DNA of 51,857 bases from a virus. Lineage: Duplodnaviria; Heunggongvirae; Uroviricota; Caudoviricetes. The stretch lies in the IMG/VR virus record IMGVR_UViG_2925891887_000006, positions 1 through 51,857 of that record. One strand, written 5' to 3'. Made by a program: the position numbers and the translations under genes. The notes under the pieces were generated by a model. It did no database searches, was not told the DNA's origin, and was given only the letters and a program-made list of their open reading frames with translations. Each line of letters starts with the position of its first letter. The stretch's first letter is position 1. Of this stretch, positions 1-50,849 are shown in pieces.

Positions 1-1206
1 TTACTTAGCGCATATTATTTTTTCTGCTAGAAAGCTAACTAAAGGAATATAGAAACTAACTAATTCTTCTGATTCAGTTAGAGGGATGTGACAATCCTCA
101 CGATTGTATTTGTCTGATGAGTGTACAAGTGCGTTTCTTATATGTTTCAGTACATGGGCTGTATTAGGAATCATATGCTCATTATTCTTAATATTTATGG
201 ATAAATTCTCGCCAAATATTTTTCTTGCTTTTGTGTAATGTTTCTCACCAATACTTTCTTCAAAATTTTCAATGAACTGCTTCAATTCATCCGGTTCAAT
301 ATATTTTTTAAGTACTCTAATCAACATGTCTTTTTCATCGGATTTATCATTATGTTTTTTGACAGTGTTTATTATTGACTCGATATCTGCTAATGATCCG
401 CTAAAATTTGTTGATTGTATGTTAGATCTTAGTTTAGCTTGTAACTCTTCTTCCGAAACACTTAGGAAGTTATATTCTAAAACATGATAATATGATAGGA
501 ATGATTGGCTTGGGAACTGGCTACTAACGGCAACTTTATAATAATTAACTAGATTTATATCATAGCTAGCAAAAGGAATATTGAGTTCAACTTCATCTTC
601 AGAAGTATATGCTATATTTAAAGAGCGGCGTTGTTTATATAGTTCCCAAGCTTGGCCGTAATCAACTGCTAGCTTGAATAAACAGCTATCGAAACATTTT
701 AATGCATCATCTAGCATTTTTTGCTGTTCGATTTTTCTCTTAAGATTATATTTTATTGTTATTGGAGTCCAAACAATAGTGTGGAAATAGACATATCCTA
801 AACGAACTCTATTAATCAGCCTTCTTTTTACAATTTTATCAATGAAGTTTTTGTAGTCTTCAGATTTAAAATGGCTAAGAGAAAATTCTTTGGTTGCTCT
901 TGATAGTTGTACTGTCTTTGATGAATTAGATTTGAATTCAAATGAAGGTGTTTCAAAAATATTTTGGTTTAATCGCTGAACAAAAACCTCAACTGTTCGA
1001 TAGCCAATCAATGTCCTCTTTTCAAGATCATATCGATATTGTCGGGATTTTGCAAAGTTAGATATTGCCTCATCATATCCTTCGTTGAATCTTACTTCCA
1101 CATCCTTGCCATCGATTTGTAAATATAATTTATCTTCTTGAACCTTACATTGAATGCCATTTGATTCGAAAACCTCTTTTACAAATTCAAAATTCATTTT
1201 TTTCAT
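1..1206 (-). CDS. Hypothetical 401-aa protein with C-terminal HEPN-like Rx4H motif (HIRNALVHS); candidate abortive-infection/defence cargo of the satellite
   Basis: Complete ORF with stop at 1..3; visibly AT-rich versus neighbours; lies distal to psu/delta where P4-like elements carry defence cargo. Confidence 0.6.
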   Translation of the reverse strand: MKKMNFEFVKEVFESNGIQCKVQEDKLYLQIDGKDVEVRFNEGYDEAISNFAKSRQYRYDLEKRTLIGYRTVEVFVQRLNQNIFETPSFEFKSNSSKTVQLSRATKEFSLSHFKSEDYKNFIDKIVKRRLINRVRLGYVYFHTIVWTPITIKYNLKRKIEQQKMLDDALKCFDSCLFKLAVDYGQAWELYKQRRSLNIAYTSEDEVELNIPFASYDINLVNYYKVAVSSQFPSQSFLSYYHVLEYNFLSVSEEELQAKLRSNIQSTNFSGSLADIESIINTVKKHNDKSDEKDMLIRVLKKYIEPDELKQFIENFEESIGEKHYTKARKIFGENLSINIKNNEHMIPNTAHVLKHIRNALVHSSDKYNREDCHIPLTESEELVSFYIPLVSFLAEKIICAK

Positions 1207-1908
1207 CCTTTTTCAATACACCGAAATGCAATACTTAATCTATCTAAACCATAACCTTTATAGAAGAATAAATATGAACATTGTTAACGGTCGAGGGAAA
1301 ATGCTCTAGTTCCTGCCTTCATGCTTCTCAAAGTGTCTTAGGTGTAAATAGCTGATATCTTGTGTGAAATGTTATCTTGTTGTAAATGGATTTGCAATGT
1401 TAACTCATGTAAAAAATAGATCATTGTCATAAAAAATGAAGTGTCTGCAAGTTAATAGGTCAGAACGCATGTAATCATAAACGGAACAAAAAACATAGCA
1501 GAAATAATGTCCGAGTTATCTACTGACATAACTAAAAAAATAATCTAAGTCTCGTCATTTCAGATAGCTTAGGAGGCTAATATCCATACCCGAATCATAG
1601 GATTTCCGTTGATAGGTAGCATATAAGAATGAGAGAAAATCAGCTGAGAGCGCATTAACCGATAGTGGTGGACTTATCCAGTTTGATTGATACAACGAAA
1701 CTGATAATGATAGTCGGTTAAGGTAGTTTAGCGCACAGCCCCGCACGCCTGCCCGCTTCGCTTAACAGACTGGTTTTCATGCATGCCATAAATCGTCTCA
1801 GTTACCACCATACAAAGGTTTTCGCCTCAAAAAAGGTGCATAAGACTCATGCGTTTTCATGCGCCATAGACATGCACTCATGCGCTCTCAGGCCAGCCAG
1901 GGAAAAGG

Positions 1909-1937
1909 TGTTAAAAATCCCGGCACTCGACCGGGAT
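1909..1937 (-). terminator. Intrinsic terminator downstream of ogr/delta
   Basis: Stem ATCCCGG/CCGGGAT with 7-nt loop at 1917..1937, followed on the minus strand by a T-run; about 20 nt after the delta stop. Confidence 0.5.
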
Positions 1938-1957
1938 TACGTGGGCGTTTTTTCTAA

Positions 1958-2239
1958 TCAGACAGGAATCTGCTGACGGCTTGACAGTTTTGACGCGGAG
2001 CCATAGCGATTGAGCGTTTGCTGTTGTTTTACCGGGGTTTGTGATTTGTCTGGTTCCTGTTCATTGCGCCGGGGTTTCATGATTATCTTATCCACACTCT
2101 CCAGTGCCGTAAATGTGCAGGAACATTCCAGATTCTGGCACTGATACCACGAGCGTTTAACTGACGGAGCTTCATAGGCTGCTGTTCTGGCGTGTGCAAC
2201 TGTACCGCATTCCGGACATTTAAGTGCCATTAATATCAC
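1958..2239 (-). CDS. Ogr/Delta-family zinc-finger late transcription activator
   Basis: CPECG...AHART...YQCQNLECSCTF matches the P2 Ogr / P4 Delta Cys4 pattern. Confidence 0.85.
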   Translation of the reverse strand: MILMALKCPECGTVAHARTAAYEAPSVKRSWYQCQNLECSCTFTALESVDKIIMKPRRNEQEPDKSQTPVKQQQTLNRYGSASKLSSRQQIPV

Positions 2240-2787
2240 TCCTGTATATCGTTAATGTCATTCAGGCGTTGCTGAAAACGCAGGTGTTGTGCCGGGGTGT
2301 AAGAGCCCTGGCAATCACGAATCATCCCGGGGTCAGGCATCAAACCGGATTCATCTAGGATCTCACGATAATCCCCGACAATTTCAGGCGGTGTTATTGC
2401 CAGCTGGCGAACCAGAGCACTGCGTAATATACGAAACGCAACGTCAACCCCTCCGCGTCCCTTCAGGAACGGAGCCAGTGCAGATGTCAGGGCTGCCCCA
2501 TTCGCCTGCATAAAATTGCTGAGAGCAGCTTCTGTGCAGGCCTCCATCAATAAATGCTGCGAGTAAATGCATTCGCGCGCAGCACAGTTAATTTGCCATT
2601 TCAGCACATCCAGACGTTCCCGCAGTAATTCGAGCTGTCGGGCATAATCTGCTGGTTTTTCTGTGGCAGTGAGGAGAGATGCTATCTGTTGTTCAACGGC
2701 TTTTCGGCTCTCACTATGTCCGGCCCACAGAATACGGGCATTCCGAAAACTGGTAAGTGCCTGGTCAGGTGTGCCTCGGGCCGTCAT
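2236..2787 (-). CDS. psu: Psu-like polarity suppression protein
   Basis: 183 aa; resembles P4 Psu as recalled (ALTSALAP, TPAQ segments); start overlaps sid stop. Confidence 0.6.
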   Translation of the reverse strand: MTARGTPDQALTSFRNARILWAGHSESRKAVEQQIASLLTATEKPADYARQLELLRERLDVLKWQINCAARECIYSQHLLMEACTEAALSNFMQANGAALTSALAPFLKGRGGVDVAFRILRSALVRQLAITPPEIVGDYREILDESGLMPDPGMIRDCQGSYTPAQHLRFQQRLNDINDIQE

Positions 2788-3527
2788 ACTGCTTTCTCCT
2801 TCTCAGCAAGTTCCTGACGAACCTTTATTTTATGCATAGCTGCCGGAGAGAGTTGATTACTGAAATCCAGACGCGCCGCATAATCCGGGGCAACTCCCGC
2901 CAGTTTAAACACCGGGTCCTGTTCAGGCATCGCATCGTTAGCCAGAGCCGGTCTGGTGATATGTTTATGAATAAAGTCTTTCAGCACTGTGTCCGGGTCA
3001 TTAACTGAATTCACCACACCCACAACGGCACTGGCTTCCCGGCCCATTGTGGATTTAAGCAGGCTCAGCGTCTGAATAAGCGCTTTTCCATGCGACTGCA
3101 TAAAATCTTCCCAGATTTGTTTTGCGCGAATATCTACAAGGATGTTATGCGCGTGGATATACTTTCCGGCTAATTCCGCAGCTTTCTGCGGCAAAAGTGC
3201 ATTTTCGCTTTCCTGAGCCGCCAGCAGCTCATCAAAATCCTCAAGCGTTTCTCGTCCCAGCGCAATTTCCGTGCGCAGTTTTTTCATTTCCTTTGAGACC
3301 ACGCCCTGACTTTCACGAAACAGCGTGCGCCACTCCTCATTCAGTGTGTTCGTCGTGGCTTCCATTTCAGCGCGACGCTGGCGGATTGTCGCAATATTAT
3401 CCGCTGCCGCTTTCTGCTGACGACGTGCTTCAAGCCATGCGTTTCTGGCTGTGTTCATGGTTTCCAGTGCCCGCTGCGTTACAGCCGGAAAAGTGGAAAG
3501 GTTGTTATTCACTGCGGTGTTGTTCAT
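2784..3527 (-). CDS. sid: Sid-like capsid size-determination (external scaffold) protein
   Basis: 247 aa, coiled-coil-like; EEWRTLFRESQGVVS resembles P4 Sid as recalled; position upstream of psu. Confidence 0.5.
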   Translation of the reverse strand: MNNTAVNNNLSTFPAVTQRALETMNTARNAWLEARRQQKAAADNIATIRQRRAEMEATTNTLNEEWRTLFRESQGVVSKEMKKLRTEIALGRETLEDFDELLAAQESENALLPQKAAELAGKYIHAHNILVDIRAKQIWEDFMQSHGKALIQTLSLLKSTMGREASAVVGVVNSVNDPDTVLKDFIHKHITRPALANDAMPEQDPVFKLAGVAPDYAARLDFSNQLSPAAMHKIKVRQELAEKEKAV

Positions 3528-3706
3528 GACTTCTCCTGTCGGGGTGGTTAGTTACGTCAATTGTGTCGTGGCTGACACAAGCACACTATCGGTGCTCAGT
3601 GTGTGGTGGCTGGCACAACGGGCGCTTGCGGTTATTCCGACGTGGCTATGAAAGCCAGCCAGATAAAAATGCCCACTGTTTCAGTCTGCTTTATGTCCCT
3701 GATGCG

Positions 3707-3894
3707 GTGGAACAGGTGAAACATGTGTTACACCTTTGTTTTATAAAGCATTTATATACACTGCACCGGTGGAACATCGCGGGTAACAAGGTGGAACAGC
3801 GGATTGGCTGGCGTTACATCTGTTCCACCTCACTATTTCAGAAGGTGGAACAGGTTCAGCCCTGTAAAATACGGTTGTTCCACCTGTTTCACCT
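3707..3894. repeat. Alpha-binding octamer iteron cluster (crr/ori-like): GGTGGAACA / TGTTCCACC, at least 6 copies in both orientations
   Basis: Copies at 3707, 3768, 3790, 3844 (plus) and 3821, 3877, 3886 (minus, last one TGTTTCACC variant), immediately downstream of the alpha gene. Confidence 0.65.
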
Positions 3895-3927
3895 GTTACC
3901 CTTAATAAATAAGACTCACGCAAAGTC

Positions 3928-6600
3928 TTAACCCGGCACCTCGCTGTTGAAGACATAGAGCCTGCGGGGATTCATCTCTGGCGGGCGAATGGTTGTCTGG
4001 AGTTTGCCATCAGTGGAGGGCAGCAGGTATCCACGATCTGCGCACAGACGCGCCACCTTGCGCGGGTCAAATCCCCTGCAGATTTCTTTCCAGCCGGACG
4101 GCATGACATAGAACGTAGTGACAGCTTCCGTGCCCTGCGCGGTACTGCCTTTCTCCACCCTGCGCCAGCCCACCATATTGCCGGGGCGGTTGCGCTCGTC
4201 ATACCAGTCTGCAAAGCGGCTGTACTGATTCGCGGTAAAGAAACTGCGAACCTGCTCCAGTGCGGCGATATCTTCCTGATTGGCGGTGTGCCCGCGATCT
4301 TTCAGCCATGCGTTCAGGCAGACGCGGGTTGCCCGCAGTGCTTCACCCTCAGGCCAGCCGGTGATACCCAGACGGGTTGCCAGTTCACCTGCCATCGCCA
4401 CCAGTGCAAAGCGGTTCACAGCCCGTCCCACCTGATTGCCTGCATCTTTCGGAGTCAGGGCGGCAGCATATTCCTTCATCAGCGATTTTGCCTGTGCCGT
4501 TAGTCCGTTAAGATCAGCGGTCAGTGCTTTCAGCCACTCCCGGAACGGCGAACCGTAGTAGCAGGACGTGGCCCATTCAAGATGCTCTGCCAGAGCCTTG
4601 CCGCTGTCGAAGCCGTGCAGCTCCTCAAAAACGCCAAACTTCCCGGAATCGCTGGGGATCTGGATCATCCTGACTTCCATCCCGGCAAAAGTACGCTCAC
4701 CGGCCTTTGCCGCATGTTCGGTCAGAGACAATTCGCCAGTTGAAAAGAACAACAGGCGCCACTGCTTACGGGTACGCAGCTCACCGTCCGTACCGGCACG
4801 GCCCTTGCCCTGACCGTTTGCCAGCATGTAGGCGATATTGCCTGCCTCGCGTCCGTCAACTTCCCGGATCTCATCAAGCATCATGGCGGCATCGTTGCGG
4901 CGGCTGGCGCATCCCTCCAGCGCGTTGCCGGTGGCCCGCCATGTCTGCCAGTAGTCAGGCCCGCCGCAGACGGAGGTTGCCGCTTTCATGGTGGTAGTCT
5001 TACCGTCTGTCGATTCCCCTTTGAGGTGGTAGCCGCCGCCGTCCATACCCACCAGCCGTAACAGTGGTGCAGCAAAGGCCAGGCTGACAGCAAATGCCAC
5101 GCGGGAGTTGCCGGTACAGTAGCGGGATACATGCTCCCGCCATTCCTCTGTTGTGCCCGACACGCGGAAATCACGCCCCTGCACGGAAGTGGTCTGGAGA
5201 ATGACACCCTCTGCACCTTCACCGCTGACCTCATCCTGCAGGACGTAAACCTGACCATGCCAGCCAGTACGACTGACGCAGGTCACGCGGCGTTCCGGTT
5301 TACACAGTGAGATATATTCCATCAGGCGTGCGCGTGCCTCACCGGTGGTGCTGATATAAGACAGCCCGTTAACCAGCAGTACCCGGCGCAGTTCCTCACC
5401 ACTGCCGCTCAGCATTTCCATCGGCATCGCCCAGCGGCGACACTCACCCCACGTATCTTCCCATTCCAGCAGTCGTCCGAAGTTACCGCCATCGGCATCG
5501 CAGGTGATTGCCGTCACACGCAGCGGGCTGCATATTTTGACGTTCTGGATCTCCGTCTCACCGTTGCGCTGTACCTGCTTTTCATACCAGAGATATTCCT
5601 GGGTAAGACGGAACCCGTGCGGCAGTTGCGTGCGGCCTTCCCCGCACAGTACCAGACCGTTGCGAAAGGCTTCACGGGCACGGGTAATACCATGCTCCCG
5701 ATGAAAGTCATTCCAGTCAGCCTTAATCTCTCCTGGTGGCAGCGTCATCCAGCCGCCAACAGATTTTGCCGCCCGTTCAGCAAAGGCTCTGCCGGGATTC
5801 TCCCCCCCGTCCTGAAAATCGTTATCACCGGCGATGATAATTTTTACCTCAGGCCAGCGTGCCCGCAGCGACTGCGCCACATTGGGCAGATTGCCCGCAG
5901 ATATGGCAGCCACTACGCATCCGGCAGTGAGCTGGCTTACCGTCAGCGCCGTAGCGTAACCTTCGGTAATCACCACCTGTACCGGTGGTTCAGACGGTAA
6001 CGGGCTGAGCGACACAAACGCGCCTTTCATCGTGCTGCCGGGCAGTATGCTTTTTTCACCCGTCGGGGCGATAAGCTGTGCACCGGTCACGGCTCCGGTA
6101 TTGGTCGTGAGTGGTAACAGCAGGGAACCGGCAGGAAAATCCTTACCGCTGATATGCTGCACGCTTCCGGTCAGAGAGGCCGGGTATCCGGCGAACCCTT
6201 TTCCTGTCAGATAGGCGCTTTCTCCCGTGTGGCTCTCTTTCATCAGCGCCGCCACGGTAAGACCCATGTCGCGTTTAGGGGCTTTTTGTCTGGCAGGCTT
6301 AACAGGCAGTTCCTGCACATCCGGCACATTAAGCATCTGCGCCACCTCCTGCGCAGCCTTTCTGACGCTGTAACCGGTTACGAGCTTAACCAGATCCAGA
6401 CCGTCACCATTGCCACACTGGCTGCAGATCCACGTCCCGCGCCCGTCAAGGTCATCAAGGCGAAAACGATCCTTGCCCCCACATTTCGGGCAGGGACCGT
6501 GCCTGCCGTTTTCAGGTACATCAATACGCAGCATCTGCAGAATAACGGGCCATTTCCCCCGCGCGGCGGCTGAAATCTGCGTAACCGTCTGTATTGTCAT
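3928..6600 (-). CDS. P4 alpha-type primase/helicase (N-terminal zinc ribbon, primase, P-loop helicase)
   Basis: 890 aa; CPKCGG...CSQCG zinc-binding motif; GESTDGKTT Walker A. Confidence 0.9.
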   Translation of the reverse strand: MTIQTVTQISAAARGKWPVILQMLRIDVPENGRHGPCPKCGGKDRFRLDDLDGRGTWICSQCGNGDGLDLVKLVTGYSVRKAAQEVAQMLNVPDVQELPVKPARQKAPKRDMGLTVAALMKESHTGESAYLTGKGFAGYPASLTGSVQHISGKDFPAGSLLLPLTTNTGAVTGAQLIAPTGEKSILPGSTMKGAFVSLSPLPSEPPVQVVITEGYATALTVSQLTAGCVVAAISAGNLPNVAQSLRARWPEVKIIIAGDNDFQDGGENPGRAFAERAAKSVGGWMTLPPGEIKADWNDFHREHGITRAREAFRNGLVLCGEGRTQLPHGFRLTQEYLWYEKQVQRNGETEIQNVKICSPLRVTAITCDADGGNFGRLLEWEDTWGECRRWAMPMEMLSGSGEELRRVLLVNGLSYISTTGEARARLMEYISLCKPERRVTCVSRTGWHGQVYVLQDEVSGEGAEGVILQTTSVQGRDFRVSGTTEEWREHVSRYCTGNSRVAFAVSLAFAAPLLRLVGMDGGGYHLKGESTDGKTTTMKAATSVCGGPDYWQTWRATGNALEGCASRRNDAAMMLDEIREVDGREAGNIAYMLANGQGKGRAGTDGELRTRKQWRLLFFSTGELSLTEHAAKAGERTFAGMEVRMIQIPSDSGKFGVFEELHGFDSGKALAEHLEWATSCYYGSPFREWLKALTADLNGLTAQAKSLMKEYAAALTPKDAGNQVGRAVNRFALVAMAGELATRLGITGWPEGEALRATRVCLNAWLKDRGHTANQEDIAALEQVRSFFTANQYSRFADWYDERNRPGNMVGWRRVEKGSTAQGTEAVTTFYVMPSGWKEICRGFDPRKVARLCADRGYLLPSTDGKLQTTIRPPEMNPRRLYVFNSEVPG

Positions 6601-6980
6601 ACTTCCCCCTGATACAACGTCACACCGGTACTGCAGCAGACATCAAAGGCCGCCGGAAGCGTGCGGTACATCTCCGCCATTACTTCACAACCGCGCGCGG
6701 TCAGTACCGGCGGCGCGGTCAGCAGTGACGGCTCCAGCATGTCAGTCAGCAGTGCCAGCGCGGCAGCGGCGCCCTGTGCTTCGCCGTACTCGTTAATCAG
6801 TGCGCACTCGATATGCAGCGCAATGGCCATTTCAATACGCTCCACCGTCAGGCTGTGCGGACCATACTGATCATTGCCAGTTTCGTTCAGCATTTTCTGC
6901 CGCCATGCTGAAGCAATAGCCCACCGGTAAAGCGCGGTGGTCATTTCTGCCGGGAAAATGGAAACCTGCGGCTGGTTCAT
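6597..6980 (-). CDS. Hypothetical protein, satellite early operon
   Basis: 127-aa ORF translationally coupled to alpha (4-nt overlap). Confidence 0.5.
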   Translation of the reverse strand: MNQPQVSIFPAEMTTALYRWAIASAWRQKMLNETGNDQYGPHSLTVERIEMAIALHIECALINEYGEAQGAAAALALLTDMLEPSLLTAPPVLTARGCEVMAEMYRTLPAAFDVCCSTGVTLYQGEV

Positions 6981-7261
6981 CTGGCACCTCCTTCAATCAG
7001 TGCGCAGCTGTGTGCAATATCCGTCAAATCTGCCCGCAGGTACTCCATCAGCGCGGCGACACCAGGCGCAAAGCCTGCGTCCAGTGCTCCGGCCTGAGAC
7101 GGGTATTCAGAAAAGAGAAGCTGGAGCATGTCGCAGGCATTTCTTGCGCGGGTCAGCTTTCCGAAACCGTCCTCTGACAACCCATAGGCAAAAGCACCGG
7201 TATTGTGTTTTTCAGGCAAAGTCTGGCCCTGAGCACCGTTGTGCCCGTTTGAAATATTCAT
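6977..7261 (-). CDS. Hypothetical protein, satellite early operon (epsilon position)
   Basis: 94-aa ORF overlapping the downstream gene start. Confidence 0.5.
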   Translation of the reverse strand: MNISNGHNGAQGQTLPEKHNTGAFAYGLSEDGFGKLTRARNACDMLQLLFSEYPSQAGALDAGFAPGVAALMEYLRADLTDIAHSCALIEGGAR

Positions 7262-7292
7262 TGTGGATTACTCCGTTTTCAGCGGTGTTTTG

Positions 7293-7652
7293 TCAGAGAA
7301 ACTTTGAATAGTGACCGTCATCAGGCTCAGCAGAACACCATATGCTACGCTCCCGCCAGCGGATAAATAGCACAGACGGATGCAGTGTCAGCGGGCCGGA
7401 ACCACTACCGCCTGCAGGAGCTGGTGCAGGCTTAAAGAGCGGTACATCAAACAGGCGCGTATATCGCTGTTCAAACCATGCCAGAGGGCAGGAAGAAAGC
7501 TGGTTGTCGCTGTCATGACGTATCAGCACTTCACAGCTGAATTCAGGATTAACCAGCGCCACAGAGGGCGAGGCTTCTATTAATCGGATAATCGTGACCG
7601 TCCAGCCACGTTCATGCTGCCAGCGTTCGCCGGGATGCGGATAATTACGCAT
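7293..7652 (-). CDS. Hypothetical protein, satellite early operon
   Basis: ORF-track frame; start placed at internal Met (MRNYPHPGERW) to limit overlap. Confidence 0.4.
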   Translation of the reverse strand: MRNYPHPGERWQHERGWTVTIIRLIEASPSVALVNPEFSCEVLIRHDSDNQLSSCPLAWFEQRYTRLFDVPLFKPAPAPAGGSGSGPLTLHPSVLFIRWRERSIWCSAEPDDGHYSKFL

Positions 7653-7821
7653 GTTCACCTCCGCAGGGAATGCGCCCGGCAAAGCTCAGTACATAGTCCG
7701 GGGCAAGTCTGCGCCGCGCTGATCGCTCGTTATCTGCGGTGATCCTTAACATTACCGGACGGGCATTACGTTGACTGCGGTTGATCGCCGCAAATAACCA
7801 GGTACACTTCTGTTTAGCCAT
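7645..7821 (-). CDS. Small basic protein, Icd/Kil-like (possible host cell-division inhibitor)
   Basis: 58 aa from internal Met MAKQKCTWLF; first gene of the leftward satellite operon. Confidence 0.45.
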   Translation of the reverse strand: MAKQKCTWLFAAINRSQRNARPVMLRITADNERSARRRLAPDYVLSFAGRIPCGGEHA

Positions 7822-7937
7822 CTTCGTTACCTCATATAACGTGCTGGTCAGACGCCTCGGTGGTGCTGCAAACACTCCGGGGCGTTGCTATTTTGTTTTT
7901 CTGTGTGTAATGTGTCATTACACATAAATACATTACA

Positions 7938-8132
7938 ATGGGTGTAATTGACGTGTCAACACACAAAAATGAAAGACGTGGGAATCCGCCATTCCAGTTC
8001 CGACTTGACCCTGAACTGCGTGAACTGATGGAACAAGCACAACAGCAGGATGGCGATGAATCGCTAGCGGCTTGGATCAAGCGCATTCTACGCAAAGAGT
8101 TACAAAGCCGAGGTTTAGAACCAAAGAATTGA
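7938..8132 (+). CDS. Ribbon-helix-helix (Arc/CopG-like) DNA-binding protein, candidate satellite repressor
   Basis: 64 aa; FQFRLDPELRELMEQA...AWIKRILRKEL fits a beta-strand plus two helices; divergent from the early operon, start embedded in palindromes. Confidence 0.5.
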   Translation: MGVIDVSTHKNERRGNPPFQFRLDPELRELMEQAQQQDGDESLAAWIKRILRKELQSRGLEPKN

Positions 8133-8181
8133 TTAATACGTTGGGGAGGCTTTTTTCTCCCCAGCTTTGTTAATATTGTCA

Positions 8182-8397
8182 TTACACTACTTCCTCCAAT
8201 CCTGCTGATTGAGCTTTAACCCACTGCCTAATTTCTTGTGCATCGTAAACAGATACCCGTTTTGAAATGCGTATAGATTTGGGAAATTCAGGATTGTTCT
8301 TTTCCCAGCGCCAGAGAGTAACCGTACTTATTTGCAAAAAGTCAGCAGTAGCTCGTGGGCGGGCATGTCCAGTGATAGGATAAGTTTTTAATGTCAT
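8182..8397 (-). CDS. alpA: AlpA/Vis-family transcriptional regulator
   Basis: 71 aa with HTH; typical partner of P4-type integrases. Confidence 0.8.
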   Translation of the reverse strand: MTLKTYPITGHARPRATADFLQISTVTLWRWEKNNPEFPKSIRISKRVSVYDAQEIRQWVKAQSAGLEEVV

Positions 8398-8499
8398 GAA
8401 ATTACCTGCCGTGTTATGTAATGAACACGGCAGATACTATGGGGATATCAAAATGCTGTGAAGGTAGTGTAATCAACTCTACCTGTAGATTGTTTCAGT

Positions 8500-9381
8500 C
8501 TACCCCTTTTGTTTTAATCCCGCATGATTAACCGCTAATCGTAATTTTCTTAAGATTTCTTGTTCATTAGTGATAAATATTGGAGGTAGCTCTCCTAAAT
8601 GTTTAATTATGGCGTTAGTCCACTTTTCAGGACTTATCTCTTTTCTTTCACCACGACATTCGCTTGGGTATTTTGCTAATATATATATGGCTGCATTTAA
8701 TAACCCCCCCCTATTTTTTGCATGATGCTCAGCAGTGTTATTTAATCGCTTGGGGATTTTAGGTTCAGATGAAATTCTTTTCGTAAGTAAACTTGGCATA
8801 GGAATTCCAGTTTTTACTGATTTCCATATTAACTCTAAATCTCTTCGCATGATAAGAAGATCTTCAAATGGAATATCAATGACCTTATTTCCTTCATATG
8901 AGGCCGTTGCCATCAAAACATTATCTCGTATTTTTACCGGTTTAAGCCTGAATTCATAATCTGGATCTATAGCTAATCCATTTTTTATGTCACTTATCAT
9001 ATCATCGGCGTACCAAATACCACAGGCAAATCCTATAATTTGAAGCCCATTTTCAAAATGTTCAAAGGAGTCATCTTTAAGGTCATACCATATTGTTGAA
9101 AATTCCATCTCTAGTGATTGATTAGTTAATACGGGATGAATTAAGTCAATTTCCATTTTCTGATTTTTATAGAGGAAATTAACATTAAATCTAACTGCAA
9201 GTCCATCCGCCTTGAATGCGATATTAAAAGCGCCTATTTCGTATAGGTGTAATAAATCATCAATCTCGCATTCTAATAGTCTTGAAGCGCGTTCAAATGA
9301 ACAATATTCTAATGGTGGTATTTTTTTGTCAATCCATAGATTTCCTAAGAATATAGTTTCATTCTCTTTTGAATGCTGCAT
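8500..9381 (-). CDS. Hypothetical AT-rich 293-aa protein between int and alpA (accessory cargo)
   Basis: Long ORF, low GC versus flanking int and alpA, no recognisable motif. Confidence 0.6.
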   Translation of the reverse strand: MQHSKENETIFLGNLWIDKKIPPLEYCSFERASRLLECEIDDLLHLYEIGAFNIAFKADGLAVRFNVNFLYKNQKMEIDLIHPVLTNQSLEMEFSTIWYDLKDDSFEHFENGLQIIGFACGIWYADDMISDIKNGLAIDPDYEFRLKPVKIRDNVLMATASYEGNKVIDIPFEDLLIMRRDLELIWKSVKTGIPMPSLLTKRISSEPKIPKRLNNTAEHHAKNRGGLLNAAIYILAKYPSECRGERKEISPEKWTNAIIKHLGELPPIFITNEQEILRKLRLAVNHAGLKQKG

Positions 9382-9411
9382 TATGACCTCTGTTTTAAAT
9401 TATAAGAAAAT

Positions 9412-10746
9412 TTAATTGATAATGTTAATACCTGATAAGTCATAAGGAGCATGAAATTCGTCCTTATTTAGTTCCAGATAATTAGACCACCATTGCATCA
9501 TTCTGCGGCGTTCCTGCATGTGCTGCGCAAGATGCACATATGCTGCCCGCACTTCGTTTCTTTCTTGGTGACTCATCTGCCGTTCAACTGCATCGCGTGA
9601 CCAGAGTCCTGATTCGGTCAGTGCAGAGCAGGCCATCGCCCTGAACCCATGCAAGCAAACATCACTTTGAGTGTCGTAACCCATCGTTCGCAGTGCTTTA
9701 TTAACTGTGTTTTCGCTCATCGGTTTATATGGGTTGCTGTCACCGGGGAAAACCAGCAGATATTCACCACTGATTTTCCTTATATCCTCCAGTACCCCGA
9801 TAGCCTGACTAGATAGCGGGACATAATGAGCAGCCCCCATCTTTGCACCCCGCTCTGAGAATTTAACCCCTGCGATCTCTTCACGTTGTCCTGGTATCGT
9901 CCATAGCCCATTTTCAATGTCGATCTCCTCCCATCTGGCATGTCGTAGTTCGCTGGATCGCACAAAAGTGTGCAGGGAAAATAGAACTGCTAGGCGAGTC
10001 AATGGTCTTCCCGTGTAACTTCTCGTTTTCGCTAACAGTTCAGGTAAACGTTCGAGAGGTAGTGCGGGGCGATGTCGTACTTTGGGGGTCGTAATTGCAC
10101 CTTTTAGATCGTGGGCAGGGTTGTAATCGACAATTCCACGTTGCACGGCATAACGGAAGATGCTCGTCATAGTGGTTTTTACCCGGCTCGTTGTGGCACC
10201 AATTCCTTTCTCAGTCATCTCAACCAGCATCGGCATCAAGTCACGGGTTTTGAGCGTATCGATAGGCTTTGAACCGATGGCAGGAAAGAGGTGGTTTTCC
10301 ATTTCTCGGAGAATTTTTTTACGGGTGATCTCTTTCCACTCAGGATGCCCTATCGTTCTACTATGCCACTCTCTGGCAACACTCTCGAACGTGGGGGAAA
10401 TTGGGTCTTCCTTTTTGGGTTTCTTTGCTTCGCGAGGATCACGACCATCGGCTAGTAGTTGCCTGGCTTCATCACGCCGTTTCCGCGCTGTTGCAAGTGA
10501 GACATCTGGGTAGACCCCTAATGCCAATGTCACTTGTTTTCCATCAAAACGATAATTCATACGCCAGTATTTTCCACCAGTCTTTCGTACCAGTAGATAC
10601 AAACTCCCTCCATCGGTAAGTTTGTAATCATTGGTCTTCGGCTTGGCGTTTTCTATCTGTTTGGGGGAAAGCACATTAATGGCCATATCTGTACTCATTT
10701 TGGTAGATTGATGGTATCTGCATATCGAACTGGGGAATACCATCAC
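9412..10746 (-). CDS. int: Tyrosine integrase, P4-type
   Basis: 444-aa ORF (true start may be an internal Met); N-terminal arm-binding-like region and C-terminal catalytic region; adjacent to att core copy. Confidence 0.9.
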   Translation of the reverse strand: MMVFPSSICRYHQSTKMSTDMAINVLSPKQIENAKPKTNDYKLTDGGSLYLLVRKTGGKYWRMNYRFDGKQVTLALGVYPDVSLATARKRRDEARQLLADGRDPREAKKPKKEDPISPTFESVAREWHSRTIGHPEWKEITRKKILREMENHLFPAIGSKPIDTLKTRDLMPMLVEMTEKGIGATTSRVKTTMTSIFRYAVQRGIVDYNPAHDLKGAITTPKVRHRPALPLERLPELLAKTRSYTGRPLTRLAVLFSLHTFVRSSELRHARWEEIDIENGLWTIPGQREEIAGVKFSERGAKMGAAHYVPLSSQAIGVLEDIRKISGEYLLVFPGDSNPYKPMSENTVNKALRTMGYDTQSDVCLHGFRAMACSALTESGLWSRDAVERQMSHQERNEVRAAYVHLAQHMQERRRMMQWWSNYLELNKDEFHAPYDLSGINIIN

Positions 10747-10872
10747 TTATACCATCACGAGGTTGTAATGTCATGAAATTAACTGAAATGAAAATCAGGC
10801 CGATTCGGTGATAACTTACTGTTTTTTTAAGTGGTTATGTAATGAAGTGAAATGTAGAGAAAGGTCTTTAAA

Positions 10873-10885
10873 GTGTCCCCTGCAG
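10873..10885. repeat. att core copy (GTGTCCCCTGCAG) at the satellite/prophage junction
   Basis: 13/13 identical to the 3' end of argW at 50777..50789. Confidence 0.6.
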
Positions 10886-11159: not shown

Positions 11160-11200
11160 GAGTGCTATCTCCGAATAGGGAATCGAACCTGCAAATCAGG

Positions 11201-50774: not shown

Positions 50775-50849
50775 TGGTGTCCCCTGCAGGAATCGAACCT
50801 GCAATTAGCCCTTAGGAGGGGCTCGTTATATCCATTTAACTAAGAGGAC
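50775..50849 (-). tRNA. argW: tRNA-Arg (anticodon CCU)
   Basis: Minus-strand GTCCTCTTAGTTAAATGGATATAACGAGCCCCTCCTAAGGGCTAATTGCAGGTTCGATTCCTGCAGGGGACACCA; cloverleaf with CCU anticodon and encoded CCA. Confidence 0.92.
50777..50789. repeat. att core within the 3' end of argW (GTGTCCCCTGCAG)
   Basis: Identical 13-mer at 10873..10885. Confidence 0.6.

Follow-up and report, generated by a model that had tools for sequence, protein, structure and literature searches.

The cos-adjacent locus of P4 satellites is a hotspot for defence genes (Rousset et al. 2022, PMC9122126), and phage defence has been shown for six of eight P4 hotspot loci of unknown function (2026 preprint). Two described systems come closest to the gene examined here. 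ApeA (Gao et al. 2020; Juozapaitis et al. 2026 preprint, 10.64898/2026.01.26.701840) is a single-gene system in which a C-terminal HEPN domain with insertions follows a non-HEPN N-terminal region; Table S1 of Rousset et al. lists it as single-gene HEPN cargo in P4 hotspots. Dazbog (Millman et al. 2022) is an abortive-infection system that requires DzbA, a DUF262 protein that senses methylated DNA, alongside DzbB; a dzbB deletion was unobtainable, "possibly due to toxicity", which fits a regulator as well as an effector. HEPN domains in general carry a conserved Rx4-6H motif, in which the arginine is usually followed by a polar residue, and catalytic families keep such a pattern invariant (Anantharaman 2013, PMC3710099). 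The gene described here lies in a P4-like satellite of E. coli. Its identity as AT-rich foreign cargo at a cos-adjacent hotspot is supported, and a role in phage defence is inferred; on balance, we favour the reading that it encodes a stand-alone, two-domain anti-phage HEPN ribonuclease protein carried as swappable cargo.

The window (the whole stretch of DNA analysed, 51,857 nt) begins exactly at the stop codon of the cargo ORF (TTA on the plus strand, TAA in the gene) and takes in the satellite and an intact argW gene, the integration target (Table 1). The left att fragment lies outside, 522-543 bp to the left of window position 1, and matches argW at 22 of 23 positions; the satellite between the two argW fragments measures about 11.4 kb. 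The interval between argW and the csc genes holds the satellite and a P22-like prophage in tandem. The cargo gene had been placed just distal to ogr/delta, psu and sid, and the profile matches in this region confirmed that order, with the primase beyond. The stretch from 1207 to 3600, compared by blastn with 50,697 phage records, P4 included, gave no match.

Table 1. Features of the cargo locus, the satellite and its integration site (window coordinates; protein residues in 401-aa numbering).
Feature	Position	Strand	Basis or remark
Cargo gene, 398-aa protein, RefSeq WP_001008529.1	1..1197	-	ORF, RefSeq, homologue N-termini, Shine-Dalgarno sequence
C-terminal all-helical domain, residues ~215-401, predicted HEPN fold of MauJ/DzbB-C type	4..564	-	Conserved half
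RNALVH (R357-H362), Rx4H motif of HEPN catalytic type	121..138	-	Codons AGA AAC GCA CTT GTA CAC
N-terminal alpha/beta domain, residues 4-190, putative sensor	637..1197	-	Variable
AT-rich (33.6% GC) cargo-specific upstream region, Shine-Dalgarno sequence at 1206-1210	1198..1730	-	Only in the 39 gene-carrying genomes
cos-like 19-nt core GGCGTGCGGGGCTGTGCGC, exact backbone/cargo boundary	1731..1749	-	Local alignment to P4 cos junction GCAAAGCGGGCG/GGCGAGGCGGGG
Conserved satellite backbone (cos region), delta stop to cargo	1731..1957		88-97% identity, ~810 E. coli genomes with other cargo
Candidate sid-psu-delta terminator, 9-bp GC-rich hairpin then U-rich stretch	~1905..1929	-	29 nt past delta stop
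delta/ogr	1958-2239	-	Pfam Ogr_Delta 7e-16
psu	2236-2787	-	Pfam Psu 9e-44
sid-like (Sid/Psu-like) gene	2784-3527	-	Pfam Psu 2e-9
alpha-like primase (Zn-ribbon, Toprim, DUF927), co-directional with late genes	3928..6600	-	Pfam
Satellite tyrosine integrase, element end opposite cargo	9412..10686	-	RefSeq annotation
argW 3'-end fragment GTGTCCCCTGCAG, right att remnant of satellite	10873..10885	+	
Intact tRNA-Arg(CCT) argW, integration target	50775..50849	-	

Among 5,426 complete genomes of E. coli, 849 had the junction between satellite backbone and cargo, and only 39 had segment 1-1730. In these 39 genomes the cargo gene was intact at a DNA identity of at least 99%; the 522 bp to its left likewise occurred in 39 genomes and end at the argW att fragment. 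Other genomes carried DRT3, an ABC-three-component (ABC-3C) system, a St85-family retron or SIR2 with HerA at the same junction. The element has psu, delta, sid, alpha and int, the gene lies directly beside cos, and the locus is variable, with known defence systems as its alternative occupants, as expected of the variable anti-phage cargo position that had been proposed for it. The hotspot of Rousset et al. is likewise filled by variable cargo immediately after cos, with known defence systems as alternatives; the satellite differs from theirs in that alpha, sid, psu and delta all point in the same direction and the integrase lies at the far end. Because of this gene order, the cargo is found between cos and att instead of between psu and int, so that search pipelines bounded by psu and int could miss it. 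The locus shows that in this P4-like subfamily, with its altered order of genes, the hotspot has its place between cos and att.

The ORF as listed spans 1..1206 on the minus strand (401 aa, ATG start). Its true start is probably M4, the ATG at 1197-1195, which gives 398 aa: RefSeq annotates the same start, the N-termini of homologues begin there too, and an AAGGA Shine-Dalgarno sequence (1210-1206) precedes it by 8 nt. The gene has a GC content of 31.1%, against 50.8% for delta-psu-sid and 58.9% for alpha (backbone 51-59%), which bears out its description as an AT-rich ORF on a GC-richer backbone. The initial annotation also described a 750-bp AT-rich leader ending in a terminator behind the delta operon, and this was partly upheld. 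Only 1198-1730 is AT-rich, cargo-specific sequence; the remainder (51.1% GC) is conserved backbone. Right at the cos-like site the GC content jumps from 34% to 51%, and backbone homology in the ~810 genomes with other cargo stops at 1731-1739. In an ungapped comparison, the cos-like core and the P2/P4 19-mer agree at just 11 of 19 positions, and the P2 and 186 cos 19-mers had no match in the window at up to three mismatches; the site was recognised from local alignment only. As for the terminator, a hairpin followed by a U-rich stretch is present (RNA fold centroid -13.5 kcal/mol), but it escaped the consensus terminator scan, and its 71-nt segment showed no folding advantage over shuffled versions (z = -0.78). 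The promoter presumably lies within the AT-rich upstream region; a consensus promoter and terminator scan of the minus strand over 1198-1957 returned nothing, with no sigma-70 match and overall counts no higher than in shuffled sequence.

The cargo module as a whole is 2.25 kb long with sharp edges, the cos-like core on one side and the argW att fragment on the other; it corresponds to about 3252290-3254541 of NZ_CP031134.1. Partner genes had been suggested as possible just outside the window. There are none: the 522 bp between the stop codon and the att end hold no ORF longer than 44 aa, and no conserved neighbour accompanied the homologues in Escherichia, Serratia, Pectobacterium, Pantoea, Aeromonas, Pseudomonas, Vreelandella, Ralstonia or Pandoraea. 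These flanks bear on the alternative that the protein is an addiction toxin, similar to those of toxin-antitoxin systems, which stabilises the satellite by means of an unrecognised small RNA or short-ORF antitoxin and defends only secondarily. HEPN proteins are frequent toxins of this kind (HepT, or AbiF with its RNA antitoxin), the gene is accompanied on either side by about 520 bp of AT-rich DNA that is otherwise unexplained, and an N-truncated variant of the protein was found. Against it, a search of both flanks with TRF and Rfam for an RNA antitoxin yielded only a 9-bp repeat of 3.2 copies at the att end, with neither tandem repeats like those of type III antitoxins nor a significant Rfam match; the left flank lacks any longer ORF; a conserved neighbour is missing throughout the homologues examined; and the flanks are not kept with the gene in other genera, where homologues have no comparably long upstream region (the preceding gene is 49 bp away in Pantoea, and in Pectobacterium about 140 bp away). 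We regard the addiction toxin as improbable.

The motif from which a HEPN assignment had been proposed, HIRNALVHS, occupies residues 355-363 of the 401-aa numbering. An Rx4H motif can occur by chance, and 38% of 5,000 shuffles of the cargo protein contained one. What gives it meaning here is that R357, N358 and H362 do not vary among 61 homologues, the most distant of which are about 35% identical. Also invariant in the same set are H241, E244, E291, E316, H344, K354, D365 and R369. An AF2 model of the protein (pLDDT 88) predicted a HEPN fold for the C-terminal domain, its core an up-and-down four-helix bundle, so that the assignment made from the motif was corroborated by structure prediction. 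Models of the HEPN clan were matched below threshold, DUF4145 by 10 of the 61 members (best E 6e-4) and HEPN_Apea by one (E = 0.02), as was the PADLOC model for RT-associated HEPN proteins by 12. In other comparisons, Foldseek against the PDB gave nothing below E = 0.65, the family profile HMM against all PDB sequences gave only a spurious NS1 match (E = 1.1), hhalign of the cargo family against one single HEPN_Swt1 sequence gave nothing, NCBIfam gave no matches and PHROGs only noise. The N-terminal domain is beta-rich. Among homologues it is far less conserved than the C-terminal domain (32% versus 58% identity), which is the usual pattern of a sensor joined to an effector.

The family to which the protein belongs is large: grouping at 50% identity yields 1,544 clusters, most of them full-length at about 400 aa, and 163 of the clusters lie at E <=1e-30. 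Satellites of Pectobacterium, Serratia and Pantoea carry a homologue at the same position after delta. Elsewhere, homologues adjoin the PADLOC candidates PDC-M34 and PDC-S59 or NERD with UvrD; a point against a role in defence is that several (Pseudomonas, Aeromonas, Pandoraea) lie among ordinary genes without defence neighbours. Since the family is also found outside satellites, the gene is not one of the satellite life cycle. Non-catalytic binding modules are known among HEPN domains. A second alternative is that the protein has the HEPN fold but leaves RNA uncut, acting instead as a regulator or adaptor that binds ligands or nucleic acids and has some other accessory role, for example in the interplay of satellite and helper or in host physiology. 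This we consider unlikely: the R, N and H of RNxxxH and several charged residues around them are invariant, the pattern of catalytic HEPN families (PMC3710099), the swappable slot is otherwise filled by proven defence systems, and the occurrence of the family outside satellites argues against a satellite function. A catalytic HEPN domain remains our preferred reading.

Beyond its motif, the protein had been matched to no named defence family. For the protein as a whole this stands, but the C-terminal half does have named relatives, the C-terminal domain of DzbB and Pfam MauJ. DzbB (PDLC03836) was the only PADLOC match, at E = 2e-9 and 35 bits for the cargo protein and 7.5e-11 at best among the 61 members. 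The DzbB C-terminal domain, of about 190 residues and homologous to that of the cargo protein, matched 54 of the 61, with E-values of 1e-14 to 1e-4 for nearly all family members. This match would be expected of a remnant or orphan Dazbog, a DzbB without DzbA and inactive alone. The alignment, however, covers only positions 181-334 of 341 in the DzbB profile, for the cargo protein and its family alike, and the N-terminal half is unlike DzbB. A DzbA/DUF262 gene was absent from the 2.25-kb module and from the vicinity of the nine homologues examined. The gene also belongs to a well-conserved full-length family of its own (the 163 clusters given above), and its integrity at near-identity across the 39 genomes speaks against decay; an orphan Dazbog is thus very improbable. 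With Pfam PF17419 (MauJ), 53 of the 61 members matched below threshold, the cargo protein at 22.1 bits against a cut-off of 28. A relative on a Priestia plasmid passes the MauJ threshold and aligns with the cargo family at an hhalign probability of 98.8%; YYHxxEYxF and RNALxHS are conserved in the pair, so that even this distant relative retains the RNxxxH motif. The name MauJ implies methylamine metabolism, and nothing in the cargo locus supports that; no description of MauJ as a HEPN or defence family was found in the literature searched. Searches by accession, by diagnostic peptides and by MauJ with phage returned nothing relevant, nor did the accessible part of the supplementary tables of Rousset et al.

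ApeA shares with the cargo protein a single-gene organisation, a C-terminal HEPN domain with insertions and a non-HEPN N-terminal region. The two differ in size and build: ApeA has about 580 aa in three mostly helical domains and forms decamers or dodecamers, and the cargo protein has 398 aa in two domains, the N-terminal one alpha/beta, with no Mid domain. It could nonetheless be a divergent ApeA that works identically, as a doughnut-shaped oligomer activated by a deoxydinucleotide and cleaving tRNA anticodon loops. Three relatives bear the UniRef label "ApeA N-terminal domain-containing protein", and the single HEPN_Apea match and the shared habitat in P4 hotspots point the same way. Neither the Pfam nor the PADLOC models of ApeA matched the cargo protein, though, and the Pfam models missed the three labelled relatives as well. 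Together with the differences in length and domain content, this makes identity with ApeA highly unlikely. By analogy, the ApeA mechanism (ligand-activated cleavage of tRNA anticodon loops leading to abortive infection) may still serve as the best working model for the cargo protein.

Among other HEPN families, HepT/HI0074, AbiV, the C-terminal domain of AbiA and Csm6 are only 8-13% identical in sequence to the cargo protein; HepT depends on an MNT antitoxin, and AbiA includes a polymerase domain. Unlike minimal and Abi-type HEPN proteins, the cargo protein has an unrelated N-terminal domain of its own and long insertions in the HEPN core. DARNA/PD-T7-3 was rejected as a relative since its HEPN domain is N-terminal, and the protein fits none of the P4 systems that have recently received names (Crouga, Bandua, Aernus, Toga, Reve and Hailong).

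For a stand-alone anti-phage HEPN ribonuclease, the following sequence of events can be proposed. The C-terminal domain would dimerise, as in other HEPN enzymes, bringing two RNxxxH motifs into a composite active site. The fast-evolving N-terminal domain may act as a sensor or regulator and hold the nuclease inactive until it meets a cue derived from the phage. The activated protein might then cut cellular or phage RNA, perhaps at tRNA anticodon loops, for which ApeA, DARNA and PrrC offer precedents. By the same analogy, translation would stop and infection would be aborted, protecting the clonal population, the satellite and the host. To a specialist this proposal should seem plausible rather than startling, since both HEPN effectors and genes of unknown function are expected in P4 hotspots. 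Its validation would bring a new single-protein defence system, very compact at 1.2 kb, from an E. coli lineage background that is common in the clinic. It would also assign a function to a large family whose members are now called "hypothetical" or, misleadingly, "MauJ", and hint at the role of DzbB.

A bolder version can be offered only tentatively. The gene may be the first E. coli representative of a widespread family, as yet without a name, of one-gene abortive-infection systems (about 1,500 clusters at 50% identity) that joins a MauJ-type HEPN ribonuclease to an undescribed alpha/beta sensor, with the topology of T3SS chaperones or YbjN and direct recognition of a phage protein or peptide. 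Were this true, DzbB would be the ribonuclease effector of Dazbog, and Pfam MauJ would need to be re-annotated as a defence HEPN family. A point against the anti-phage reading is that a tblastn search of the 50,697 phage records with the cargo protein found no homologue. A plasmid search returned two distant matches, each over about half to two-thirds of the protein, with the HEPN half included.

E. coli chromosomes, NZ_CP031134.1 among them, carry a sequence identical to the window, and that record supplied the DNA left of position 1. The satellite is bounded on the left by a piece of the argW tRNA 3′ end, 522-543 bp left of position 1 (GGTGT-CCCTGCAGGAATCGAA, identical to argW at 22 of 23 positions); a 13-bp argW fragment between the integrase and torI forms the right end, and an intact argW lies past a P22-like prophage ending in IntS. 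These positions show that the satellite (about 11.4 kb) and the prophage form a tandem integration at argW (window parts 1-10885, 10873-10885, 11179-11194 and 50775-50849), the junctions being marked by three partial argW copies. The prophage, with its IntS and TorI-like Xis, is not a P2-type helper. The genes alpha, sid, psu and delta all run in one direction, with the integrase at the opposite end of the satellite; this P4-like layout (1731-6600) is non-canonical, as the corresponding genes diverge in P4. Delta, after psu, is a short Ogr-like protein. RefSeq names the Sid-like capsid-size gene "septation initiation protein", apparently an annotation error that arose from the abbreviation SID.

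Features of the satellite and of the cargo protein
Feature	Position	Strand	GC	Basis
Cargo gene	1-1197	minus	31.1%	
Cargo upstream DNA	1198-1730		33.6%	
Cos-like 19-nt core	1749 to 1731	minus		alignment with P4 end junction
Region between cargo and delta	1731-1957		51.1%	
Ogr/Delta	1958-2239			Pfam, E 7e-16
Psu	2236-2787			Pfam, E 9e-44
Sid/Psu-like protein	2784-3527			Pfam
delta-psu-sid			50.8%	
Alpha primase, Zn-ribbon/Toprim/DUF927	3928-6600		58.9%	Pfam
WP_001164795.1 gene	8500-9381	minus	about 32-38%	
Integrase	9412-10686			
Right argW fragment	10873-10885			
Intact argW	50775-50849			
Alpha/beta domain	about residues 4-190			AlphaFold2 model
Disordered linker	between the two domains			AlphaFold2 model
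All-helical domain	about residues 215-400			AlphaFold2 model

Comparisons at both edges establish that the cargo is a sharply bounded 2.25-kb module with one gene. Left of the att fragment lies ordinary chromosome, found beside tRNA-Arg in 2,637 genomes; only 39 genomes have the 522 bp from att to the cargo-gene stop. Among 5,426 complete E. coli genomes, 849 match the query, about 810 of them solely from 1731-1739 onward (88-97% identity), and positions 1-1730 are present in only 39. The break in conservation is a cos-like site, whose minus strand, GCGAAGCGGGCA/GGCGTGCGGGGCTGTGCGC, aligns with the P4 end junction, GCAAAGCGGGCG/GGCGAGGCGGGGAAAGCAC. Its core and the P2/P4 19-mer are alike at only 11 of 19 positions, ungapped; together with the gene layout, this hints that the helper differs in cos specificity. 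Other genomes carry, at the same junction, Drt3a/Drt3b, an ABC-three-component system, a St85-family retron with its effector, or SIR2 with a HerA-like ATPase. The slot is the cos-adjacent hotspot that Rousset et al. 2022 (PMC9122126) described for P4-like satellites, and the cargo position assigned in the initial annotation was correct. Cargo lies between psu and int in the P4 hotspot, whereas in the co-directional subfamily it lies between cos and att. In strain Ec-2844 (retrieved locus L018, NZ_CM192136.1, 3219-4447; window about 1700-1730), IS2 sits between the cargo upstream region and cos, and the cargo gene is nonetheless intact.

A minus-strand ORF listed as 401 aa (1..1206) has its stop codon on the first bases of the window. 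Translation most likely starts at the fourth codon (ATG at 1197-1195, giving 398 aa), because RefSeq begins there (WP_001008529.1, "hypothetical protein"), the N-termini of aligned homologues coincide with M4, and 8 nt 5′ of this ATG there is an AAGGA Shine-Dalgarno (1210-1206), which overlaps the first ATG. The gene is AT-rich against the GC-richer satellite genes, as first noticed. The proposed 750-bp AT-rich leader, however, consists of two separate parts: only 1198-1730 is AT-rich and belongs to the cargo, while 1731-1957 is conserved satellite backbone that includes the cos-like site. A consensus promoter scan of 1198-1730 found nothing, and the long region 5′ of the gene is not kept with homologues elsewhere. 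A terminator had also been proposed after delta; a 9-bp GC-rich hairpin with a U-rich tail does lie in the backbone part, 29 nt past the delta stop, and is a reasonable but unproven candidate, although a consensus terminator scan did not call it. A second AT-rich satellite gene, encoding a hypothetical 293-aa protein (WP_001164795.1), lies between an HTH/AlpA-like gene and the integrase; PADLOC gave no match for it, and the gene may mark a further accessory or hotspot locus.

The suspected partner genes beyond the window edge did not materialize: the 522 bp from the cargo stop to att contain no ORF >44 aa, and nine homologues from other genera have no common neighbour. Neither flank holds a tandem-repeat RNA locus or an Rfam match. 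The protein is quite unlikely to be an addiction toxin kept in check by a hidden antitoxin. Homologues in Pectobacterium, Serratia, and Pantoea closely follow an Ogr/Delta gene of P4-like elements, that of Vreelandella is in an integrase island, that of Ralstonia adjoins a NERD-UvrD helicase, and those of Pseudomonas, Aeromonas, and Pandoraea stand alone. PADLOC identified several unannotated neighbours as defence candidates (PDC-M34A/B; PDC-S59, E 1e-190; NERD+UvrD). On a Pantoea metagenome contig (L014, 1523-2738), the homologue comes right after a PDC-M34A/B pair (DUF5343 + HEPN_Swt1) in a P4-like hotspot, which thus holds two different HEPN proteins. The Pseudomonas sediminis and Aeromonas veronii homologues (L007, 4144-5709; L015, 5786-7423) lie directly 3′ of a PAS-PAS-MCP (Aer-like) chemoreceptor gene; this adjacency may reflect coincidence, a common insertion site, or joint transfer.

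A word-indexed search returned 398 homologues, nearly all full-length (about 400 aa), from Enterobacterales, Aeromonas, Pseudomonas, Halomonadaceae, Burkholderiales, Desulfuromonadota, and metagenomes; an exhaustive profile search gave 1,544 cluster representatives (50% identity) at E <=1e-3, 163 of them at E <=1e-30. The AlphaFold2 model is confident (pLDDT 88), and a HEPN fold is predicted for the C-terminus, as anticipated. Searches of the PDB with Foldseek and with a sequence profile gave no match for this domain. Weak matches to DUF4145, a HEPN-clan family (10 of 61 members), and to the RT-associated HEPN of PADLOC (12 of 61) point the same way. The PADLOC DzbB profile matched the query at E 2e-9 and 54 of the 61 members, always within about positions 180-335 of 341, and Pfam MauJ matched 53, every one below threshold. 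These consistent matches argue for a C-terminal module that is a predicted HEPN of the MauJ/DzbB-C type.

The Rx4H motif on which the initial annotation relied is present (HIRNALVHS, residues 355-363; RNALVH encoded at 121-138, minus strand), although Rx4H occurs in 38% of 5,000 shuffles of the protein; the bare motif is no proof, and its weight comes only from conservation and structural context. Across a 61-sequence alignment, with identity down to about 35%, R357, N358, and H362 are invariant, giving RNxxxH, as are H241, E244, E291, E316, H344, K354, D365, and R369, among others. Mean identity to the query is 58% in the C-terminal half versus 32% in the N-terminal half, with 56 versus 5 near-invariant columns: a conserved effector half is joined to a variable N-terminal half. 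It is unlikely that the protein is a HEPN without catalytic activity serving another accessory role. Protein record P0013 (238 aa) is an N-terminally truncated variant, 97% identical and known from 25 member sequences, whose first residue corresponds to residue 161 in the 398-aa protein (M164 of the 401-aa form). With the HEPN domain and just the end of the N-terminal domain left, this variant may represent pseudogenisation or a re-start.

By analogy, the protein probably acts as a HEPN-dimer RNase with an N-terminal sensor in abortive infection. Dimerisation via the HEPN domains would create a composite RNase site; the protein would remain inactive until the N-terminal domain senses an infection cue, and would then cleave tRNA or other RNA, arresting translation and aborting the infection. 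The models for this mechanism are ApeA (10.64898/2026.01.26.701840), DARNA/PD-T7-3 (10.64898/2026.02.22.705581), and PrrC. ApeA itself has about 580 aa and three helical domains, whereas the cargo protein has 398 aa and two domains; the ApeA models gave no match, and a divergent ApeA is very improbable. An orphan remnant of Dazbog (DzbA + DzbB) is hardly credible, since a DzbA/DUF262 gene is absent and the DzbB profile is matched over only part of its length. DARNA was rejected because its HEPN domain is N-terminal. None of the systems named in the accessible text of the 2022 and 2026 P4 hotspot studies is the cargo protein, and its accession and peptides are absent from the searchable literature. 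It is best described as belonging to an unnamed family of single-protein HEPN candidates in a hotspot of known type. The finding is solid, and such a gene at such a locus is what specialists would expect. In a 2026 preprint, six of eight randomly chosen unknown P4 hotspot loci are reported to defend.

The main added value would come from the shared module, if it does explain DzbB and lead to re-annotation of the "MauJ" family (PF17419). A Priestia plasmid protein named "MauJ" by PGAP exceeds the Pfam MauJ threshold and matches the cargo family at an hhalign probability of 98.8%, with YYHxxEYxF and RNALxHS kept. The Pfam name seems ill-chosen for a HEPN-type defence module. On Priestia megaterium plasmid pB1.3 (L020, 1716-3098), a 460-aa relative that PGAP calls "methylamine utilization protein MauJ" adjoins a CHAT-domain protein.
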